Source: Spizellomyces punctatus DAOM BR117 (taxonomy: Eukaryota). Taken from it: 64,000 nucleotides of DNA. Position numbers and translations under genes: made by a program. The notes below the pieces were generated by a model. That model saw nothing but the letters and a program-made list of their open reading frames with translations. It was not told the origin of the DNA and made no database searches. Shown in pieces: positions 53,983-63,500 of this stretch; positions within the stretch are counted from its first letter, which is position 1, and each line of letters starts with the position of its first letter. The stretch is taken from the NCBI GenBank assembly GCA_000182565.2, contig KQ257452.1; one strand, given 5' to 3'.

Positions 53983-55086
53983 TAGAGTATTAAGCGTAGC
54001 AGGATGATCCTAAATCAGCTGCTGCTGGAACATCGGACAGCTGGTGATCTGTTGCCGGTGCGTTTCCTTGGTCTTGTATGAAAGGTATGAAATTCTGGAT
54101 ACTGGGGGTGGTACCATTCTCGACCTGTATCTCTATCTGGTATATGCTCATCCCGCGCGGTCCTCTTTGCAAGCCGCAGACTACTGGAGGAACCGAGCTC
54201 AGTAAAAATGGTAGAAGTATAATCGCAAACTAGTTTCTACAGATATATTACAGTTAGGTCCAGCTGAGCGATTGGTCTTGACACTGTTTGGGCAGGTACA
54301 TATCGTTGCTCACCGACAGTCAATTTGGTAATATTGCCAGGGCCCAATACCCAATAAGGGCAAGCAAGATCTGCATTATCCGAAGCTTTGCATGTTGGTT
54401 GCACATACTGTCGTTTATAGAAACCTTTTCAGAAAGATGTATCAAGAGCAGCCAAACAGTAGTTAATGGGTAACTTCTGCTGCGAATCTGATTAAATCTG
54501 TGTGCAATAGCAGTATTCCTCCCTTGGGTTCCGTGACATGTTCAACGAGAACAACAGGACCGACAAGCTGTCATACAGCTATACAGATTCACTTTACTTG
54601 TAACCATATGGCAAGTTACCTGACTCGATGGATTAAAAACTGCTACGAAAAAAGTCAAAAACTTGAGCCTCCTGGATGGGTGGTTTTTACACTGCACACC
54701 CTCAGCTTTAGCGAGCATCGATGGGCTACAACCAATGTCATTCACCCTAATCCCTGCGTCCCTGCGATAACACTGCAGAATTCCACCGCCTTAATGCAGC
54801 CCGATCAAGGGACCATCAGGTACGATGGCATGCATAAAAGCTTATTTTCCCTGAACATGAATGTTGCTTCCCAACCCTTCTCCATCATCACATGGCACGT
54901 CTGAAGACCTCCGCAATGCTGACTAATATTACATAAGCAAAGGCACAGCCATGCACTCAGCCCAAACGAATTTTGCAACTCAGCCGCTTTGGTTTTTATC
55001 CTACGGGTTGAAGGTGTGTGTGAGATTTTCCCCATTTTTTTAAAACGGCTTGGGGGAATCAACGCAAACGGAACTTGCATCTCGAC

Positions 55087-58000
55087 ATGACAGCGACAAT
55101 GGCAATGCCGACGATGCGCTGGTGTTTCTGGCTCCTGAGTGCGTGCTTGCTATGGACGGTGCGAGCAGACATTGAGGTCCCCCTCGGTATCCCAAACCCA
55201 ACCTCGCTCCAAAACCACAAGACCTTTTACGAGGGCTCTGGTTACAAGCACGCCTTTCACTGGAGCATTGAAAATGCAGGAACTCCCAACCAGACGCTGC
55301 ATGGGATTCTCGAACTGAATGGGAACAATATGAAATGGGCTTGGATAGGGTTGGGTTGGGGACGCACTATGCTCGACGCTCAGTTTATCGTATGTCACCA
55401 ACTCGCGGGTCAGAGCATTGAAATGCATGAACACGAGTCGACCGGCGCTTACAAACCCCCGGTAAGATTCCACACCAAACGGTGGCCAACATTAGCTAGT
55501 GACGAGTTGTGCTCTCCATATAATGTATTGCAACTGAGCAAGAAAAAGAAAGGCAAACTATGGCATGCAAAAAGAGACATGCCATTGGTGAAGGGTGGGA
55601 CACCCCATCGGGCGACCGTGGAAAGTTGCAGCTTTATTCAATTCCGCATATGACTTTTGGTTGCAGTTGAAGAATGCTAGAGCCCATGATGTTCACAATT
55701 GAATGCTGGCTGTCGCCTCATTTTCTCACAACATCTCGACATGGTGACCGATTCTATGATAATCCGGTTCAATTTTGGCGGCGATCTCATGTCTCTTCTC
55801 CTATTTCGATCTAGCAGTATCACTACTACGGTGCGCAAGTCACCATTCCTATCCGTGGTGCCTTCAACAACAACACATTGCTATGCGAATTTAACCGAAA
55901 GACCGACCCAAACGACGGCATTCATATCAACCTGAACCTGAACAGTTTCACCGATGTCATCTGGGCATTCAATCCAAATTCCGCCAAAAACTATGAAGAA
56001 AAATGGTTCTCGTACCATGAAAAGGACCATCGTGGGGCGGCTCAGGCGGATTTGGTCGGTGGAAGCATTGTTTCCATCCCTGCAAAATCCATTGAACGCA
56101 AACAACTTCACGGATTCGGCATGATGGCCGTCTGGTTGGGGCTCTTTCCCTTTTCGGTTTACTATGCTCGTTACTTGCGCTCCACGGTCGGATGGCTTTT
56201 TGTCCATCTCACCCTCCAAGTCCTCGGCATCATAGGCATCATTGCCTTCTTTGTCATCATTCTGACCGAATACATCGCTCTGAGCCGGCCGCACGCCATC
56301 CTTGGATTGATCCTGATCAGCTTTATTGCCGTCCAGCTCGTGCTCGGCATATGCAATATTTTAGGTCTGTCCAACGAAAGCTTGTCACGAGTTCGCAAAT
56401 GGGTCCGCCGGTCGCATAATCTCCTTGGTGCTGCTCTCATCCTCACCGCCGTCGCGCAGGTCGCTCTCGGCTTGGAGACCTTGTTCCCCTGGGTGGAGCC
56501 CCGCGGAAAAGGCGCATGGGCAGTCTTCTTTGCTCTCGTGGCGTTTTGGGTAACTGCTTTCATAGGCACCGAAGCCTTTTTCTGGATCAGTGTCCGTCGC
56601 ACAGATATCGGAATGCCGCAAAAACAAATGGTGCAGAAATCAGACAAACCCTTTGCGACCAAGGTGGAGCGCGGAGGAACTTCTGTGACCCTTACTGAAA
56701 CGACGGTTCCGTTGGATCACACCCAAATTCGCCCGGATATGCCTAGGTTTACGTGGGCGACTTTGAACCAGGCTGTCATGAATGGCGAGCTCTTGGTCGT
56801 CGCCAATGGACGCTATGTCTACTCTATTGCACAGTGGATGACAAGTCACCCTGGTGGTCAGCTCATTCTTCATGCTGTGAACGGAACAGACATTACCAAT
56901 GACTACGTAAGTACCCGATCTATGCACCGTCTGCACTGGTATTGTTAACTCACATCCTTCCAGTTCCACGAAGCTGGCTTCGATGCTGAAGAATTTGTGC
57001 CCAAACCTGAGGCACCTGCCCAACGTGCTGAACGCACTCAGGCGACTCTTCACCGCCAAGCTGCCTCTATTGCCAGCAGCGAAGTTACCGCCGGTTACAG
57101 ACAATCCAGTATTGTCCAGGAAATGAAACTATCTCCCCTGATGGCGGAGCGAGACTGGCGATTGGTCGTCCGCTCCCGTCGGACCCATGTACATACGCGT
57201 CTCGCGATTCAAAAACTGAGCAAAATGCTTGTAGGAGAGCTTGTCCCGGACCTGGACCAACCTTACGCGAACATTGACGCAGATGCCGCCAGTACGGGCC
57301 GCACGTTTGATCCAAACGAGTATCGTCGGTACGCTCTCGTCGAAAACAGTCCTATTACCCAAGGTGCCTCCATTTACAAGTTCCGATTCTGTCTGTTGTA
57401 CCCGTACGACGTCCGCGACGGCGAGCCACTTGGCTTCTTACCCGGACAAGCCATTGAAATCCAAGCCCGCATCAACGGCCGACTGATCACGCGCTTCTAT
57501 TCTCCGCAGACAGACGGCAATCTCTCTGTATTTGAAATTGATGTCAAGATTTACCCTCACGGCACGATGACGCAGTATCTCGTTAAACAGAAACCTGGAG
57601 ACCGCCAGTTCAAGATCCGTGGTCCGTTTGGGACACCCCTCGTGAACCCGGAGCGACCCCTCCATCTTGGATCATCGGACTGGGTACCCCGTCGCTTGAT
57701 CTTCATTGCGGGTGGAACGGGCATCACACCATTTTTACAATTGATAAAGTACCTCCTCCTCCCTGTTTTGGAACCCCTCCGCGTCACTACCGACTATGCA
57801 GCGACACTCGAGGATGAACTGACTCTTACCAGAGGTGACAGAGTCCTTGTCAAACATCACTACTTTGATGGATGGGCAATTGGCGTCAACGTCCGCACCG
57901 GCATGGAAGGCGCCTTCCCGCTCACTGTCACTTCTCCCCGCTGCTCATCCCACGTTTCCATCACGTTGATTCACGGTGTGCAAACAGCGTCAGAAACGAT

Positions 58001-58319
58001 CCTTGGAAACGAGTTCATCGAGGGTGCCTTGTTGGCTTATGCGGATTGCATCCAGGTCCATCGTTTCATTGCCGATGGAACTCTACCTGCCGATGGAGCC
58101 GCCACGGGTATCATCTATCCAGCACGATTGGGTGCACCAGACTTGGAAAGCATTTTGAGACAACGGTGGCCTCTGGATGATGAGCAAGAAGAGGTGGAGA
58201 GGAAACGGATGTTTGTGTGTGGACCCACTGGATTTGATTCGTGGGTAGTCGACGTCGTCTCGGAAATCGGTGTGGATACGCGCTGCCTGACTGTATTGCC
58301 CAGTGATCGGGTCATTTAG
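55087..58319 (+). CDS. Multidomain membrane oxidoreductase: signal peptide, DOMON, cytochrome b561, cytochrome b5, FAD/NAD(P)H reductase with SH3 insert (about 940 aa)
   Basis: Exons 55087-55461, 55815-56906, 56964-58319 join in frame. WIGLGWGRTMLDA and FSYH (DOMON); four TM His (b561); HPGG (b5); RFYSP, GTMTQYL, IRGPFG, AGGTGITP, VCGP (reductase); DYAATLEDELTL..DGW..GAFP (SH3). Confidence 0.9.
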
Positions 58320-58466
58320 AAAATTCGTCGTATTTTCTTTTTTTATTTGTTTGAATCTTGTTGTTTGGACAGTTCATGTACTGGATATTTCTATTTTCGT
58401 AAAAACTCTGCTGCAATTTTATAGTATATATATTATACAAAAACGTTTTCCCCAGCTGGGTATAAA

Positions 58467-60313
58467 TTACATCATATTTCCAAACATGCCTGCATATTGC
58501 ATGGCACGTACTGGTGGATGCTACACAAAAGGAAAAGCACAACACAAGGTTAATACACTTGACCACTACAAGCGATTTCCTCACATGTGCTTCCATACCT
58601 CTACAGCCGCAAACTGGTGATAGGTGAGCTTGCGATCTGGCGTTACATGGATATATGCCCCCTTGTTCCCTACACTATCGCAGTAATTCGGCGCACTGAA
58701 AATTGTGATACCTAACAACCAAACGTTAAACGAGAGTGCCACAATACATTACAACACCCTCCAAGTAACTCACATTTCCCATCATGATCCACTTGATATC
58801 CTTCCTGCTTAACTTCATGACTCCGAATCAAGACTTCCAATCCATTCCTTTCTAGGAATGATTTCGTGACATCTGGTCCAAATTGGATGCCTACACCACG
58901 TTTGGAGGGAGATCGGCCTGGAAGGGGTTGCGGGTCAGACCACAAAAGCTCGCACATCAGACCTTCGGAGCCAGGTTGCTTGAAGCGATCGATTTGACGG
59001 AGCTGTGCTTTGGGCGTCAAAAGTAGGAAACGGAACAAAAAGCAAAAAAGAACAACGCACCTCATCCAACGTCACATCATCCCGACTAAATAACCCTCCG
59101 TGTACCACCAAAATCTTCTCATTCACCACATTTCCAATCGGCACCGCATTGAAAATCTCACTGAACAACTTGAACGCTGCCTCAGAGTATTTTGCCTTAA
59201 CCTCCCCTTCGAACCCGTACACCTTATTCATATCATCCGTCTCATGGTTCCCGCGACTTAGGAATATGGAGTTGGGGTAGAGGAGCTTGAATGCAAAGAG
59301 CGTCGTAACGCACTCCACGCTAAACGAGCCACGGTCGACGAAATCGCCGTTCCATAGGTACGCGTTCGTAGGTGATGGTAGACCGTTCAGATCAAACACG
59401 TGGAGGAGATCGTAGAATTGGCCGTGAATGTCTCCGCAGATGGTGAGTTTACCACCAGAGGGCACCGTGACATCCACAATGGGTGGTTCAGCCTCAAAGA
59501 GCTTTTTGGCTTTCAGGAGGATGGTATAAAGGTACTTTTTGTGCAACTTTTTTTGTTGGCGTAAATGTTCCAGCAGTTGTGTCACGAATTCGAGCGTTAC
59601 TCCTTCGTCACCCAATCTTGGCCCATCATAGCTCGCCTCAACGACCATACTCTCCACATCCCCAATCAATTCCTCTGCAGATCGCTTCCGATCTTCGAAC
59701 GCGATGGCTGCTTCAAACGTCCGGCGCTTGAGCTCTTTTTCGCATTCACTGAGCTTCTTGCGTGCGTCTGTGTCATTTGGCGCTACGCGACAAACGGCTC
59801 GAAAGTCCTTGACGGCTTCCTTTACTTTGCCTAATGCCATGTTCCCTACGGCTCGGCGGTAGTAGCCCTTGATGTAGGATGGGTCCAGTGAGATCGCCCG
59901 ATCGGCATCCTGAATCGCTGCGCCGTAGAACTCGGATCGAATGTATGCTATAACAACGTTCACTACCTGCTCTCATGAACATGATAGCCAAATCATGTAT
60001 TACCCACCAAACGCTCGATTCGCATAATAAGCAGCTACATTCGGGTTATGCGATATCGCCTCTGTATATCGCTCCACAGCCTCGTCGTACTTTTTAGCCG
60101 CAAAGCACTTGTTGGCGGCTTCTTTTGCCTACCATGCAGAAAGAAATTAACCTCCAAACACTGGAAAGACATACAAACGGAGCATACAGTTTCCGCTTTT
60201 TGCTTGTCACTATCAGAAACGGGGAGTGGGAGGACCTCATCTGTAGAGCTGCTGGCTCTTGTTGCGGTGCGGTTTTGGCTGTCGGTGGGATCGTCTAGCA
60301 CGTGGGCAGTCAT
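58467..60313 (-). CDS. PPT1: Ser/Thr protein phosphatase 5 (TPR plus PPP domain)
   Basis: TPR (YIKGYYRRA), GDIHGQ, GDFVDRG, RGNHE, HGG, LLWSDP, IRSHE, FSAPNY. Confidence 0.97.
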
Positions 60314-60593: not shown

Positions 60594-63500
60594 CTACTTC
60601 TGCTTGTCCCGGTTCACAAGCTTCATCCCCAAGATAGCCAAAAGGGCCCAGCCCAGTCCAATATACACAATACTCACTAACGCAGTCGCGTAATTACCGC
60701 TGTCGTATGCACCCTGCCGGAGAGGCATCGTGTGGAGCTCTATCCATGGTCGTGCGCCCGCCTCCTTGATGTACCACGCTTCAATGGCCCAGCGGGGTGC
60801 GGAGACAGACCAGAGCCATCGGATGGGAGCGTAGAAGCCTGTTTGCATGACATTTTGCAATTGGGGGTTGACTCCTCCAAACACTACGTATAAACCACAC
60901 TAATGAGTACGCAGAGTAGATAAGAGACAGTGAGAACGTCAAACACTTACACATGGACCAGAGAAGAACAAAACCAGTTGCTGCGAGAGCAACAGATTGT
61001 GGTTTGATGACAGACGACAAAAAGTAACCTAGATAGATCGTGTCAGGATGCCCTGTCTCTTGCGCGACCAGCACAACATGAGCGACCTACCCATGGAGAA
61101 AGCAGCAAAGTACAAAACGAGAACCAGATCGAAAATCTCAAATAGCCTTTGGCGGAATGGGAGGAACAAAATCAATGCAAGCGTGTACATGATCGCTGCA
61201 ATGATAATTCGGGGAATATCCGCTATCCATTTCGCCATAAAGTACGGCAAGGTCGCCATGCCGCTACTGGCATCACGCCAATACACGACGCGTTCCCGAC
61301 CAAAGGTCCCTGCGCCCACAGCCACGCCCCCGAACAGTAGGCCAAGACATATAAACATGCCGCTTCCAGGAAGTTGATCGACTGCTTTCTGACATCCGGG
61401 GCCCTGGCTCAAAGCAGGCGGTGCTTGCCGGCAAACAGCCTGTGGGTATAGACCGAGATAGTCGTTGGCTTGTGTGCCGACCTATCACCATGTTAATCGT
61501 GAGCAATGCTGCACGTACACCAAACTCTCATGCGCCAATTCTCCTACCGAGATGAATATGCCGCAGAGCAGATGTACCACTTGGTCAAACCAAAAGGCTC
61601 CCGGATTCCTGTACAACTGCAAAACACAAGATATTAGAATTGCAGACTTTGTCTCCGCAACAACGCAGTAGGATGGCCCACCTGAGTACAGGCCCTTAGG
61701 TAACAGAGATAAAAGACGGTAAAAGGATTGGGCGTTCTTCTAACGGGATCTTTCGTGAACAATCCTCGCACTGTATCACGCATTTCGCCGCCAACATCAG
61801 CAAAGTAGGCGCCGATGGACCGTCCCATAGCACCAGCAGCTACAAAAAACTTCGCTTTGCTACCCGTACTCTTGACGGTTTTTCGCTTAAGGGTTCCCCG
61901 AGTGTCTTTCAACGGGAGGGTTGGATCCAAGCCAGCTTTATAATTTTCCCAACAAGTAAACAACTGCGTTGGTCTAAAGGCACTTGTGAGACGACATGGC
62001 ACCCGACCAGTCGCCACCTCCATGAAAAAATCTGCGGCACTCTCTCCTGCAATATAATATATGTTAGCGCTTTTGTCTAAAATACCGATCTTTAATAGAC
62101 CCACCTTCCCGCATAGTGAAGCCTATTCTCTCAAAATACTTGATGGCTTCGGCTCTATGACCAAAATAGATGATCCGTCCGCCCTTCCCGAGCAGTAGCA
62201 GATCATCAAACTGGTTGAATGCGGCAGGTGACGGAGAGTGTACCACTGCAGCGATGGTCATGAACTGTTCGCGCGCAATAGTATGCAACAAACTGCAGAC
62301 TTCGAATGATGTTGCAGAGTCCAATCCGCTGGTGGGTTCATCCAAGAATAAGACACTTGGAGCAGCCACAAGCTCCATCCCAATATTGACCCGCTTTCGT
62401 TGACCACCACTAAAAGTGTGAACTGCTGCATAAGAGTCCACATCAAAGTAATCACTGCCACAGATGCTGAACGAACCTGATACCGCGTTCTTCTTCATTT
62501 CCAATAACGTTATCCATAATGTGATCCAGTCCTAAAAACGATATCGTCTCCAAAACCAGATCCTTCTTTCTCTTGTTAGACCATTCAACCGGAAGTCGCA
62601 TGAGAGCGGAATGCTACAAGGATGCAAATCCGAGTAAGATAATTTGCATCAGGTGATGGAGTACCTCGTCACACGAGCTCACCATCAGGATATCACGGAC
62701 AGTCAGCTCTCGTAACATCACATCCTCCTGCGGAACAAATCCAATCAACTTGCGGTACTTTGAGAGTTCTTCCTCAATTCCATTGATGCGTATCGTCCCC
62801 GAAGTACGTTTGGCTTTATTGGTAAGCAGAGAAACAAAAGTGGTTTTTCCTGCTCCACTGGGACCCATAACAGCGCAAAGACGGCCAGGTTTCAAGTCGC
62901 CAGTGACTCCCTGTACGTGTGATCAGAGTTAGCAATGGCCTGCGGACGTCCTCAGCTCTTTAACATCCATTACCCTCATGATCTCGACGCCGGTGGGGAG
63001 GGTGAACCCCAGGTTCTCGAACTCAATTTCAAATCTCTTGTGTTCATCCGATTTTGCGGGTGGGGAGGACGCGTCACCAACAAAGTCTGGCACATCATGC
63101 TCATCTTCCGAGTCTGACTCCGCGTCGCCAACCAGCAATCCTGTCTTATTTGTTCCAGCCTCCATGATAGCCGCTTTTTGCTCCTCCTTCCCTGCCGCAC
63201 TTGCCATACTTGCATCCAGCCGTTTGCGATACTTTATATTGCGTTTCCTCACCATATACTTGCGGATTTGAAAAAAATGTCGACATTACCACAAAGACTG
63301 CGGCAAGCAAAATTAGGATCCCAATCCGCGAGACCGATTTTGTGCCCTCAGGGCAGTATGCTAAAAACGAGCAGCTGATGGGCTCCACCGAGCCGACTGG
63401 ACACCAGCTGCCGGATGGGCACACATGAACTTCGGCAGGGGTTGGACAGTAGAAGCCTGGACAGCAGTAGGCCGGCTGGTATGTATCTGGCGGACAAAGG

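Follow-up and report, generated by a model that had tools for sequence, protein, structure and literature searches.

The window analysed here, the whole stretch of 64,000 nucleotides (nt) of contig KQ257452.1 from Spizellomyces punctatus DAOM BR117 (assembly GCA_000182565.2), carries on its plus strand the gene SPPG_02277, which consists of three exons at 55087-58319, stop included. The gene encodes a single polypeptide in which a signal peptide, a DOMON domain, a five-helix b561 core, a b5-like domain and a b5-reductase-type flavin adenine dinucleotide (FAD)/NAD module follow one another in this order. We favour, with moderate confidence, the interpretation that the product is a type-I-like polytopic membrane oxidoreductase and acts as a self-contained transmembrane electron exporter from NAD(P)H to an external acceptor. 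All of its parts are known domains and its overall logic is that of NOX/FRE and CYBDOM; what makes it worth an experiment is that NAD(P)H would feed a b561 scaffold, together with a non-canonical b5-like domain, an SH3 insert, DUOX-like paralogues and a family whose named members are only zoosporic fungi. A previous reading of the same DNA, made from its letters without database searches (the sequence-only reading), had proposed this type of wiring, and its claims are considered with the results that bear on them.

Gene structure and transcript

The three in-frame exons and their coordinates had been given correctly by the sequence-only reading: the spliced translation of 940 amino acids matches the annotated database protein (P0001) letter for letter. 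Across the junction left by intron 1, the proteins of relatives align through with no residues missing. The b561/b5 junction lies inside exon 2 and the b5/reductase junction inside exon 3, both in unbroken reading frames, and since these junctions sit within uninterrupted exons, the domain fusion needs no doubtful splice. The earlier proposal of one polypeptide is also borne out by the same domain order in relatives of more than 20 genera.

Transcription was followed in RNA run X9 (same species label, 60-nt reads, 3'-biased library). Depth on the plus strand was 29-72 across 58125-58398, at the 3' end of SPPG_02277, and a loose A12 tail following 58443 in 12 reads located the poly(A) site 124 nt past the stop, so that the gene is represented by a polyadenylated transcript 3' end. 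Depth was near nil over 55933-57987 (every bin mean at most 0.41), which speaks against a separate upstream gene, because such a gene should leave a 3' peak of its own there. A small plus-strand peak (mean depth 4.55) at 55385-55521 adjoins an A-rich tract in intron 1, and reflects either internal priming on unspliced RNA, which we prefer, or a minor intronic poly(A) site. In the 3' untranslated region (UTR), position 58337 (plus strand, a C in a T-rich run) read as C>A in 9 of 46 X9 reads and as C>G in 5 of 46, which is probably noise, from sequencing or from priming, close to the poly(A) site. The contigs of X3 and X4 run through intron 1 and are therefore genomic, not transcript; the single 270-nt contig (55028-55297) from X1, a root metatranscriptome, does not prove transcription. 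A search of 54700-58800, intron 1 included, gave no match in Rfam.

Domain order and predicted topology

All the motifs quoted in the sequence-only reading are present (GRTMLDA, FSYHEKDH, QLHG, FVHL, RPHA, RSHN, a fifth transmembrane helix, HPGG and the FNR motifs). Pfam on the whole protein found DOMON, Cytochrom_B561, Cyt-b5 and FAD_binding_6, and NAD_binding_1 over the first 19 profile positions only (Table 1). Conservation was counted over the filled rows of three alignments: A1 with 28 rows, A3 with 64 and a core alignment with 88. An AlphaFold2 model built with 28 relatives had a mean predicted local distance difference test (pLDDT) of 74.7 and a predicted template-modelling score (pTM) of 0.46, with the b5-like region poorly predicted; with 64 relatives the values were 86.9 and 0.67. 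This second model was confident in the DOMON domain (~30-215), the five transmembrane helices, the b5-like domain and the FAD/NAD/SH3 module (600-940), and its linkers 389-422 and 523-532 had pLDDT below 50.

A helix at residues 10-22 appears in both models, relatives likewise begin with a hydrophobic stretch, and signal-peptide cleavage would fall between VRA and D. The number of transmembrane helices is odd (five), so the C-terminal ~555 residues should lie opposite the DOMON domain. The counts of lysine plus arginine, which are 2, 3 and 5 in the predicted cytosolic segments and 1 and 1 in the predicted outside segments, fit the positive-inside rule and thus support a cytosolic C-terminus. 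The N-terminal hydrophobic segment, the five helices and these counts agree with the earlier placement of DOMON and reductase on opposite sides of the membrane, with DOMON predicted outside and the b5-like/FNR part predicted in the cytosol. Foldseek and VIA searches with the full-length model had no b561 or b5 chain among the matches listed, FNR-fold chains being dominant, and are uninformative on those folds; the best 60 matches listed for the family profile against the PDB included no b561 or DOMON chain.

Conservation of the DOMON domain, the b561 core and the reductase

Over model residues 40-207 the fold agrees with DOMON of human dopamine beta-hydroxylase (4zel_B), with Z 15.1, a root-mean-square deviation (rmsd) of 2.8 and 145 aligned. 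The putative haem ligands within it are Met95 (in GRTMLDA), kept in 23/23 filled rows of A1 and 54/57 of A3, and His193 (in FSYHEKDH), kept in 27/27 and 58/58, respectively. The fold match and this conservation uphold the DOMON domain with a Met/His pair that had been proposed.

The b561 core, for which four His and a fifth helix had been claimed, was recovered by Pfam (3.5e-8), with His224 (QLHG), His256 (FVHL), His285 (RPHA) and His326 (RSHN) on helices 1-4 and a further helix modelled at 357-384. In the predicted topology, His224 and His285 are near the outer helix ends and His256 and His326 near the cytosolic ones. His224, His285 and His326 are kept in 83/84, 86/87 and 84/85 filled rows of the core alignment.

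The best sequence and fold matches of the reductase are b5 reductases and the FAD fragment of nitrate reductase. Physarum b5 reductase 2eix was matched by phmmer (2.9e-16) and by Foldseek (E 1.5e-14, target-normalised template-modelling score 0.82, 334 alignment columns bridging the SH3 insert). The reductase also matches yeast Cbr1 (7rom) with Z 21.5, rmsd 2.9 and 241 aligned, and human CYB5R3 with Z 21.2. In the core alignment, Arg666 is kept in 82/87 filled rows, Cys908 in 58/63, Gly740 in 87/88 and Gly742 in 82/88. RFYSP, GGTGITP, CGP and the b5-reductase fold thus sustain the FNR-family reductase of the sequence-only reading, though not as an uninterrupted one: that reading had overlooked an SH3 domain within the NAD(P)H-binding part. 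This insert, modelled with pLDDT >90, comes directly behind the opening strand-helix of that part, and it is matched by the solved SH3 domain of vinexin (2ct3) at 1.6e-5, or at 3.6e-12 when the family profile is used. Trp793 of the insert is kept in 86/87 filled rows of the core alignment, blastoclad members included; judged by this conservation the insert is ancestral to the family, and it is likely a site of regulation or docking. As far as the aligned sequences go, the cofactor motifs of DOMON, b561 and FNR are all conserved across relatives.

The b5-like domain and points against the proposed electron export

The b5-like domain is the weakest link of the electron path. It has a Pfam Cyt-b5 match, and its first axial residue, His470 of HPGG, is kept in 86/86 filled rows of the core alignment. 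In the 64-relative model residues 431-490 have block-mean pLDDT of 78-95, the sole low-confidence spot within the domain being residues 493-495 (<50), and by the consensus lines of the alignments no other stretch of the protein is as well conserved as the b5-like segment. To this extent the earlier assignment of a b5 domain stands; what fails is the canonical second axial His, expected ~24 residues downstream and absent family-wide. HMMER alignments to the b5 chains 1icc, 1lj0, 1eue, 3mus and 1b5m put Phe495 opposite that His ('..agf' vs '..vgh'). As a substitute, His491 was rejected, being kept in 36/88 rows only. His566, in a conserved helix of the linker, is invariant in 88/88 rows of the core alignment and 64/64 of A3, and W554, R561, R562, A570 and L574 of the same helix are near-invariant; it is a candidate replacement haem ligand. 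A b5-like domain with one canonical ligand and an invariant distant His poses a specific and testable question of haem coordination. Separately, the F-x-P-[KR]-x3-P-x-Q stretch after the b5-like domain was inspected by eye as an SH3 ligand and discarded, as it fits neither class I nor class II PxxP.

Several observations weigh against electron export as formulated above. Position 495 is F in 60 rows, Y in 24, V in 3 and C in 1, and it is His in 0/88; because the second axial His is absent in 88/88 rows the b5 step is non-canonical, and the domain may bind haem otherwise or not at all, FAD then feeding the b561 haem directly as in NOX. At the column of His256 (codon 56205-56207) the core alignment has 70 His, 16 Lys and 1 Ser. 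Arg244 lies 12 residues before His256 and Arg319 lies 7 before His326, spacings like those of the ascorbate-binding residues of HYP1, and from these spacings an ascorbate-like donor is possible. The Pfam DOMON score is 0.7 bit under its curated cut-off, and the SH3 insert might impair or gate NAD(P)H binding. Finally, no read of the 3'-biased X9 library spans either intron, and a full-length SPPG_02277 transcript was not seen in X9, whose reads reach the 3' end only.

Family, range and paralogues

When longer proteins were searched by word index with the exon-2 product, 30 matched, all in long colinear alignments that covered 68-100% of the query; 29 were named, all of them from chytrid genera, and these included Powellomyces, Phlyctochytrium, Gaertneriomyces, Geranomyces, Rhizophlyctis, Globomyces, Synchytrium, Cladochytrium and Batrachochytrium salamandrivorans. 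A HMMER search of 1.84 billion representatives yielded 1507 matches at E<=1e-3 and 191 at E<=1e-30. The best 150 matches listed all had E <1e-48, and the family has at least 150 representatives, as the sequence-only reading had foreseen in allowing for uncharacterised relatives in databases. Twenty of the HMMER matches were looked up, and the 19 named ones were all Chytridiomycota or Blastocladiomycota (Catenaria, Allomyces, Blastocladiella, Sorochytrium). Of 40 near-length matches to the exon-3 product, many lay on short contigs, and every named one was from a chytrid. Among 170 collected proteins, 46 match all of DOMON, b561, b5, FNR and SH3 without a peroxidase, and many others are fragments. 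A literature search, with most subscription journals and supplements outside its reach, retrieved no description of this architecture or of the four SPPG locus tags of the family.

These four S. punctatus paralogues are SPPG_02277 itself, SPPG_04966, SPPG_07915 and SPPG_06812. We built a FastTree phylogeny from the trimmed core of 88 sequences whose match covers most of residues 216-940, four near-duplicates being left out. In this tree, the root of which is uncertain, SPPG_02277 belongs to an 8-row clade of Spizellomycetales orthologues (support 100) and its paralogues to other clades.

SPPG_06812 (P0054, 1480 amino acids) has an N-terminal animal haem peroxidase domain before DOMON-b561-b5-FNR(SH3); SPPG_02277 has no peroxidase domain by Pfam on the whole protein. 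The domain was present in 4/7 proteins scanned (E 1e-101 to 1e-107) and in 11/19 long relatives, and the fused proteins, among them P0030, P0050, P0068, P0085, P0101, P0102 and P0127, come from Chytridiomycota as well as from Blastocladiomycota (Spizellomyces, Borealophlyctis, Thoreauomyces, Geranomyces, Cladochytrium, Nowakowskiella, Quaeritorhiza, Blastocladiella britannica, Sorochytrium). An Atlas cluster of 179 members has An_peroxidase in 100%, Cyt-b5 in 97% and DOMON in 88%, and the peroxidase domain matches DUOX1 (6wxr) at 1.1e-40. In SPPG_06812 the proximal FRYGH is kept, the distal-His motif is A-T-D vs D-H-D in a lactoperoxidase-like chain, and the distal Arg region is not aligned as conserved; its N-terminus may be a 'peroxidase homology' domain and not a working peroxidase.

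Other departures from the common plan were also seen. Lys replaces His256 in 7/28 rows of A1, e.g. in Globomyces, Gorgonomyces, Entophlyctis and Homolaphlyctis. SPPG_07915 (P0020) has AGSALVQ in place of GGTGITP, by which it may have lost NAD(P)H binding, and a long Ser/Thr/Pro-rich extension ahead of DOMON. Some blastoclad members have no DOMON, and P0097 of Catenaria starts at the b561 core. P0079 and P0172 (Kappamyces, both on one 7441-nt contig) and P0070 (Synchytrium, 691 amino acids) consist of b5-like, FAD and SH3 parts with no b561 in the listed Pfam domains; these are incomplete gene models, or else the cytosolic module in soluble or split form. The nearest Atlas cluster gives 'Ciliophora' as its commonest phylum, an entry given no weight.

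Feature coordinates and neighbouring genes

Table 1. Features of SPPG_02277 and Pfam matches of its product (positions in the window; residues of the 940-amino-acid protein)
Feature	Position	Strand	Residues	Remarks
Exon 1	55087-55461	+		
Intron 1	55462-55814	+		353 nt, GTAAGA..TAG, phase 0, within DOMON
Exon 2	55815-56906	+		spans DOMON-b561-b5(N)
Intron 2	56907-56963	+		57 nt, GTAAGT..CAG, phase 0, within b5-like domain
Exon 3	56964-58319	+		spans b5(C)-FNR; stop included
3' UTR	58320-58443	+		up to poly(A) addition site, X9 reads
Start codon and signal-peptide-like N-terminus	55087-55167	+	1-27	hydrophobic core WCFWLLSACLLWTV, then VRA/D
DOMON, first part	55174-55461	+	30-125	putative haem ligand Met95 (codon 55369-55371); pLDDT 84-97
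DOMON, second part	55815-56084	+	126-215	putative haem ligand His193 (codon 56016-56018)
b561 core	56091-56591	+		transmembrane helices 218-245, 252-275, 284-311, 319-348, 357-about 385; pLDDT 84-98
Cytosolic linker	56592-56744	+	385-435	predicted disordered
b5-like domain, first part	56745-56906	+	436-489	HPGG His470
b5-like domain, last part	56964-57011	+	490-505	Phe495 at canonical second axial position
Conserved linker helix RRTHVHTRLAIQKLS	57147-57236	+	~551-580	His566 (codon 57192-57194)
FAD-binding barrel, b5-reductase/FNR type	57303-57641	+	~603-715	RFYSP and GTMTQYL motifs
NAD(P)H-binding first strand-helix	57684-57764	+	~730-756	GGTGITP
SH3 insert	57765-57941	+	~757-815	
Remaining NAD(P)H-binding domain and stop	57942-58319	+	816-940	CGP at 908-910
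Pfam FAD_binding_6			643-713	E 9.7e-12
Pfam SH3_9			764-808	E 4.5e-9
Pfam Cytochrom_B561 (PF03188)			248-347	E 3.5e-8
Pfam SH3_1				E 1.3e-7
Pfam DOMON			78-177	E 1.6e-7, 32.0 bits vs cut-off 32.7
Pfam Cyt-b5 (PF00173)			438-493	E 9.1e-6, above cut-off
Pfam CDH-cyt				E 2.1e-4
Pfam NAD_binding_1				E 0.0094, profile positions 1-19 only

The convergent neighbour at 58399-59972 (minus strand) encodes a PP5-type Ser/Thr phosphatase (Pfam PPP5 5e-29, Metallophos 1.4e-23), whose 78-nt intron at 58521-58598 is confirmed by 23 RNA reads (CT..AC on the plus strand) and whose 3' end meets or runs into the 3' UTR of SPPG_02277 around 58400-58443. Open frames at 61029-62531 (minus strand) with ABC transporter and ABC-2 membrane matches are pieces of an ABCG-type gene and have no evident link to SPPG_02277.

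Proposed function and alternative explanations

We infer cofactor binding and electron flow from the b5 reductase/b5, b561 and CYBDOM families. On this analogy, cytosolic NAD(P)H would reduce FAD in the cytochrome-b5-reductase-type module, and the electrons would pass on singly, with a non-canonical b5-like haem as the probable intermediate, first to the cytosolic b561 haem (His256/His326), next to the outer b561 haem (His224/His285) and then to the Met95/His193 haem b of the extracytoplasmic DOMON domain, which would reduce an external acceptor, most likely a ferric/cupric chelate or an extracellular redox protein. The protein would thus be a CYBDOM in which a fused NAD(P)H/b5 feed takes the place of the ascorbate donor or adds to it. 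Midpoint potentials rise along such a path, the flavin being near the NAD(P)H couple, b5 near zero and the b561 and DOMON haems positive, so outward electron flow would be downhill. Of the wiring put forward by the sequence-only reading (NAD(P)H-FAD-b5-b561-DOMON), the domain order, the topology and the DOMON/b561/FNR motifs are retained and a canonical b5 step is not. Its suggestion of an output of reactive oxygen species comes out as the weakest of those proposed, on thermodynamic grounds: the reduction of O2 to superoxide by a DOMON haem would be unfavourable, and Fe3+/Cu2+ chelates or a redox protein are for this reason ranked above O2.

A different acceptor is nonetheless the core of the best surviving alternative, which we hold to be unlikely: that the protein is a NOX/DUOX analogue whose extracellular reduction of O2 to superoxide or H2O2 serves signalling, defence or the cross-linking of the wall, with the peroxidase-fused paralogues using the H2O2. 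The existence of such paralogues in both phyla, with SPPG_06812 in the same genome, the 179-member Atlas cluster and the match to DUOX1 at 1.1e-40 speak for it, as do the Naegleria NOX homologues with an SH3 domain inside the NADPH-binding domain that are reported in PMC3591440. However, NOX haems are very negative whereas b561 and Met/His DOMON haems are clearly positive, which makes a one-electron reduction of O2 unfavourable; moreover, SPPG_02277 is without a peroxidase domain, and SPPG_06812, with Thr for the distal His and an unconserved distal Arg region, may be no working peroxidase.

Less probable still is an ordinary CYBDOM fed by ascorbate or erythroascorbate, in which the b5-like/FNR part only regenerates the oxidised donor radical on the cytosolic side or serves an unrelated cytosolic reaction. 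The characterised b561 proteins use ascorbate specifically, according to PMC10784544, and the basic residues by the cytosolic His pair at HYP1-like spacing and the non-canonical b5-like domain would suit this explanation. Against it, the fusion persists in both named phyla, Chytridiomycota and Blastocladiomycota, conservation is strongest in the b5-like segment, as would fit a fixed intramolecular partner, and the net reaction would still run from NAD(P)H to the outside. That the long protein is a gene-prediction artefact joining two neighbouring genes, as the lack of RNA reads across the introns and the small peak (4.55) at 55385-55521 might suggest, is highly improbable and close to refuted, given open frames unbroken over both domain junctions, introns that both split single domains in phase 0 with canonical ends, the recurrence of the architecture in dozens of independently annotated genomes, and bin means of at most 0.41 over 55933-57987 vs 29-72 at the 3' end of the gene.

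We therefore return to export from NAD(P)H to an external acceptor. NAD(P)H-driven electron export is the province of NOX/FRE, and if the interpretation is true, a b561 scaffold can be driven by pyridine nucleotides; zoosporic fungi, with relatives of the protein in Batrachochytrium salamandrivorans, gain a distinct cell-surface redox system; and a self-sufficient single-gene electron exporter becomes available to engineers and to studies of haem-to-haem transfer over long range. Modules that NOX gained separately have their parallel in the peroxidase-fused and SH3-bearing forms, a striking convergent recruitment of domains on two membrane cores. More tentatively, and with less confidence than we place in export as such, these proteins might form, next to NOX/FRE and STEAP, a third class of transmembrane electron exporters that is driven by NAD(P)H and was assembled independently. 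Such a class would have a b561 core and five redox centres (FAD, a b5-like haem held by His470 and His566, two b561 haems and the DOMON haem), would be regulated by SH3, and would include peroxidase-fused paralogues convergent with animal DUOX; with named records only from zoosporic fungi, it could serve iron/copper acquisition or the wall chemistry of encystment.

Comparison with known systems

The nearest relatives in plan are the CYBDOM proteins (HYP1 and CRR of Arabidopsis, and animal SDR2/FRRS1). According to PMC10784544, ascorbate drives trans-membrane currents through HYP1, which acts as a reductase of ferric and cupric substrates; its ligands are M90/H174 in DOMON, H211-H278 for the outer b561 haem and H245-H314 for the cytoplasmic one, the Met/His ligation of the cellobiose dehydrogenase (CDH) cytochrome is cited as the template for its DOMON, and the b561/CYBDOM proteins with a tested donor use ascorbate. 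As far as this source describes them, CYBDOMs share with SPPG_02277 the signal peptide, the extracytoplasmic DOMON with Met/His, the b561 His pairs at matching spacing and the cytosolic C-terminus. They end after b561 and are fed by ascorbate, whereas SPPG_02277 adds ~555 residues comprising the b5-like domain, the His-bearing helix and FNR with SH3.

With NOX/FRE/DUOX the likeness is one of logic: in one chain, cytosolic NAD(P)H feeds FAD, two stacked membrane haems and an acceptor outside. The NOX dehydrogenase domains share the FNR fold with SPPG_02277 (Z 18.4 for that of SpNOX, 8qq5; Z 17.1 for that of NOX5, 5o0x). However, the membrane core of SPPG_02277 is b561 (PF03188) and not the six-helix ferric reductase domain (PF01794). 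Neither Ferric_reduct nor FAD_binding_8 was matched at E<=0.1 on the exon translations or at 0.01 on the whole protein; for NAD_binding_6 the exon translations scored no better than 0.027, short of its cut-off. Full-length NOX2, SpNOX and DUOX1 compared with the SPPG_02277 model gave rmsd of 21-24 Å and no shared arrangement. In addition, the reductase is closest to b5 reductase, and the extra b5-like domain and the DOMON haem lengthen the chain. According to PMC3591440, the ferric reductase domain superfamily has itself gained DOMON (Naegleria, oomycetes), peroxidase (DUOX) and SH3 in the NADPH-binding domain (Naegleria NOX).

The cytosolic half resembles b5 reductase with b5 and their fusions (Ncb5or and the b5-FAD half of nitrate reductase), in which a b5-type domain is likewise followed by an FAD/NAD module and RxY[ST], GxGxxP and CGP are kept. 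It differs from these in being tethered to a b561 core, in an NAD domain split by SH3, in having no second axial His, and in having no CS or molybdenum domain. Lastly, the DOMON domain recalls the CDH cytochrome (CAZy AA8) through a weak Pfam CDH-cyt match (2.1e-4), found also in 2/19 long relatives. The secreted CDH cytochrome receives its electrons from an extracellular flavodehydrogenase to which it is fused, whereas in SPPG_02277 the feed would cross the membrane from the cytosol.

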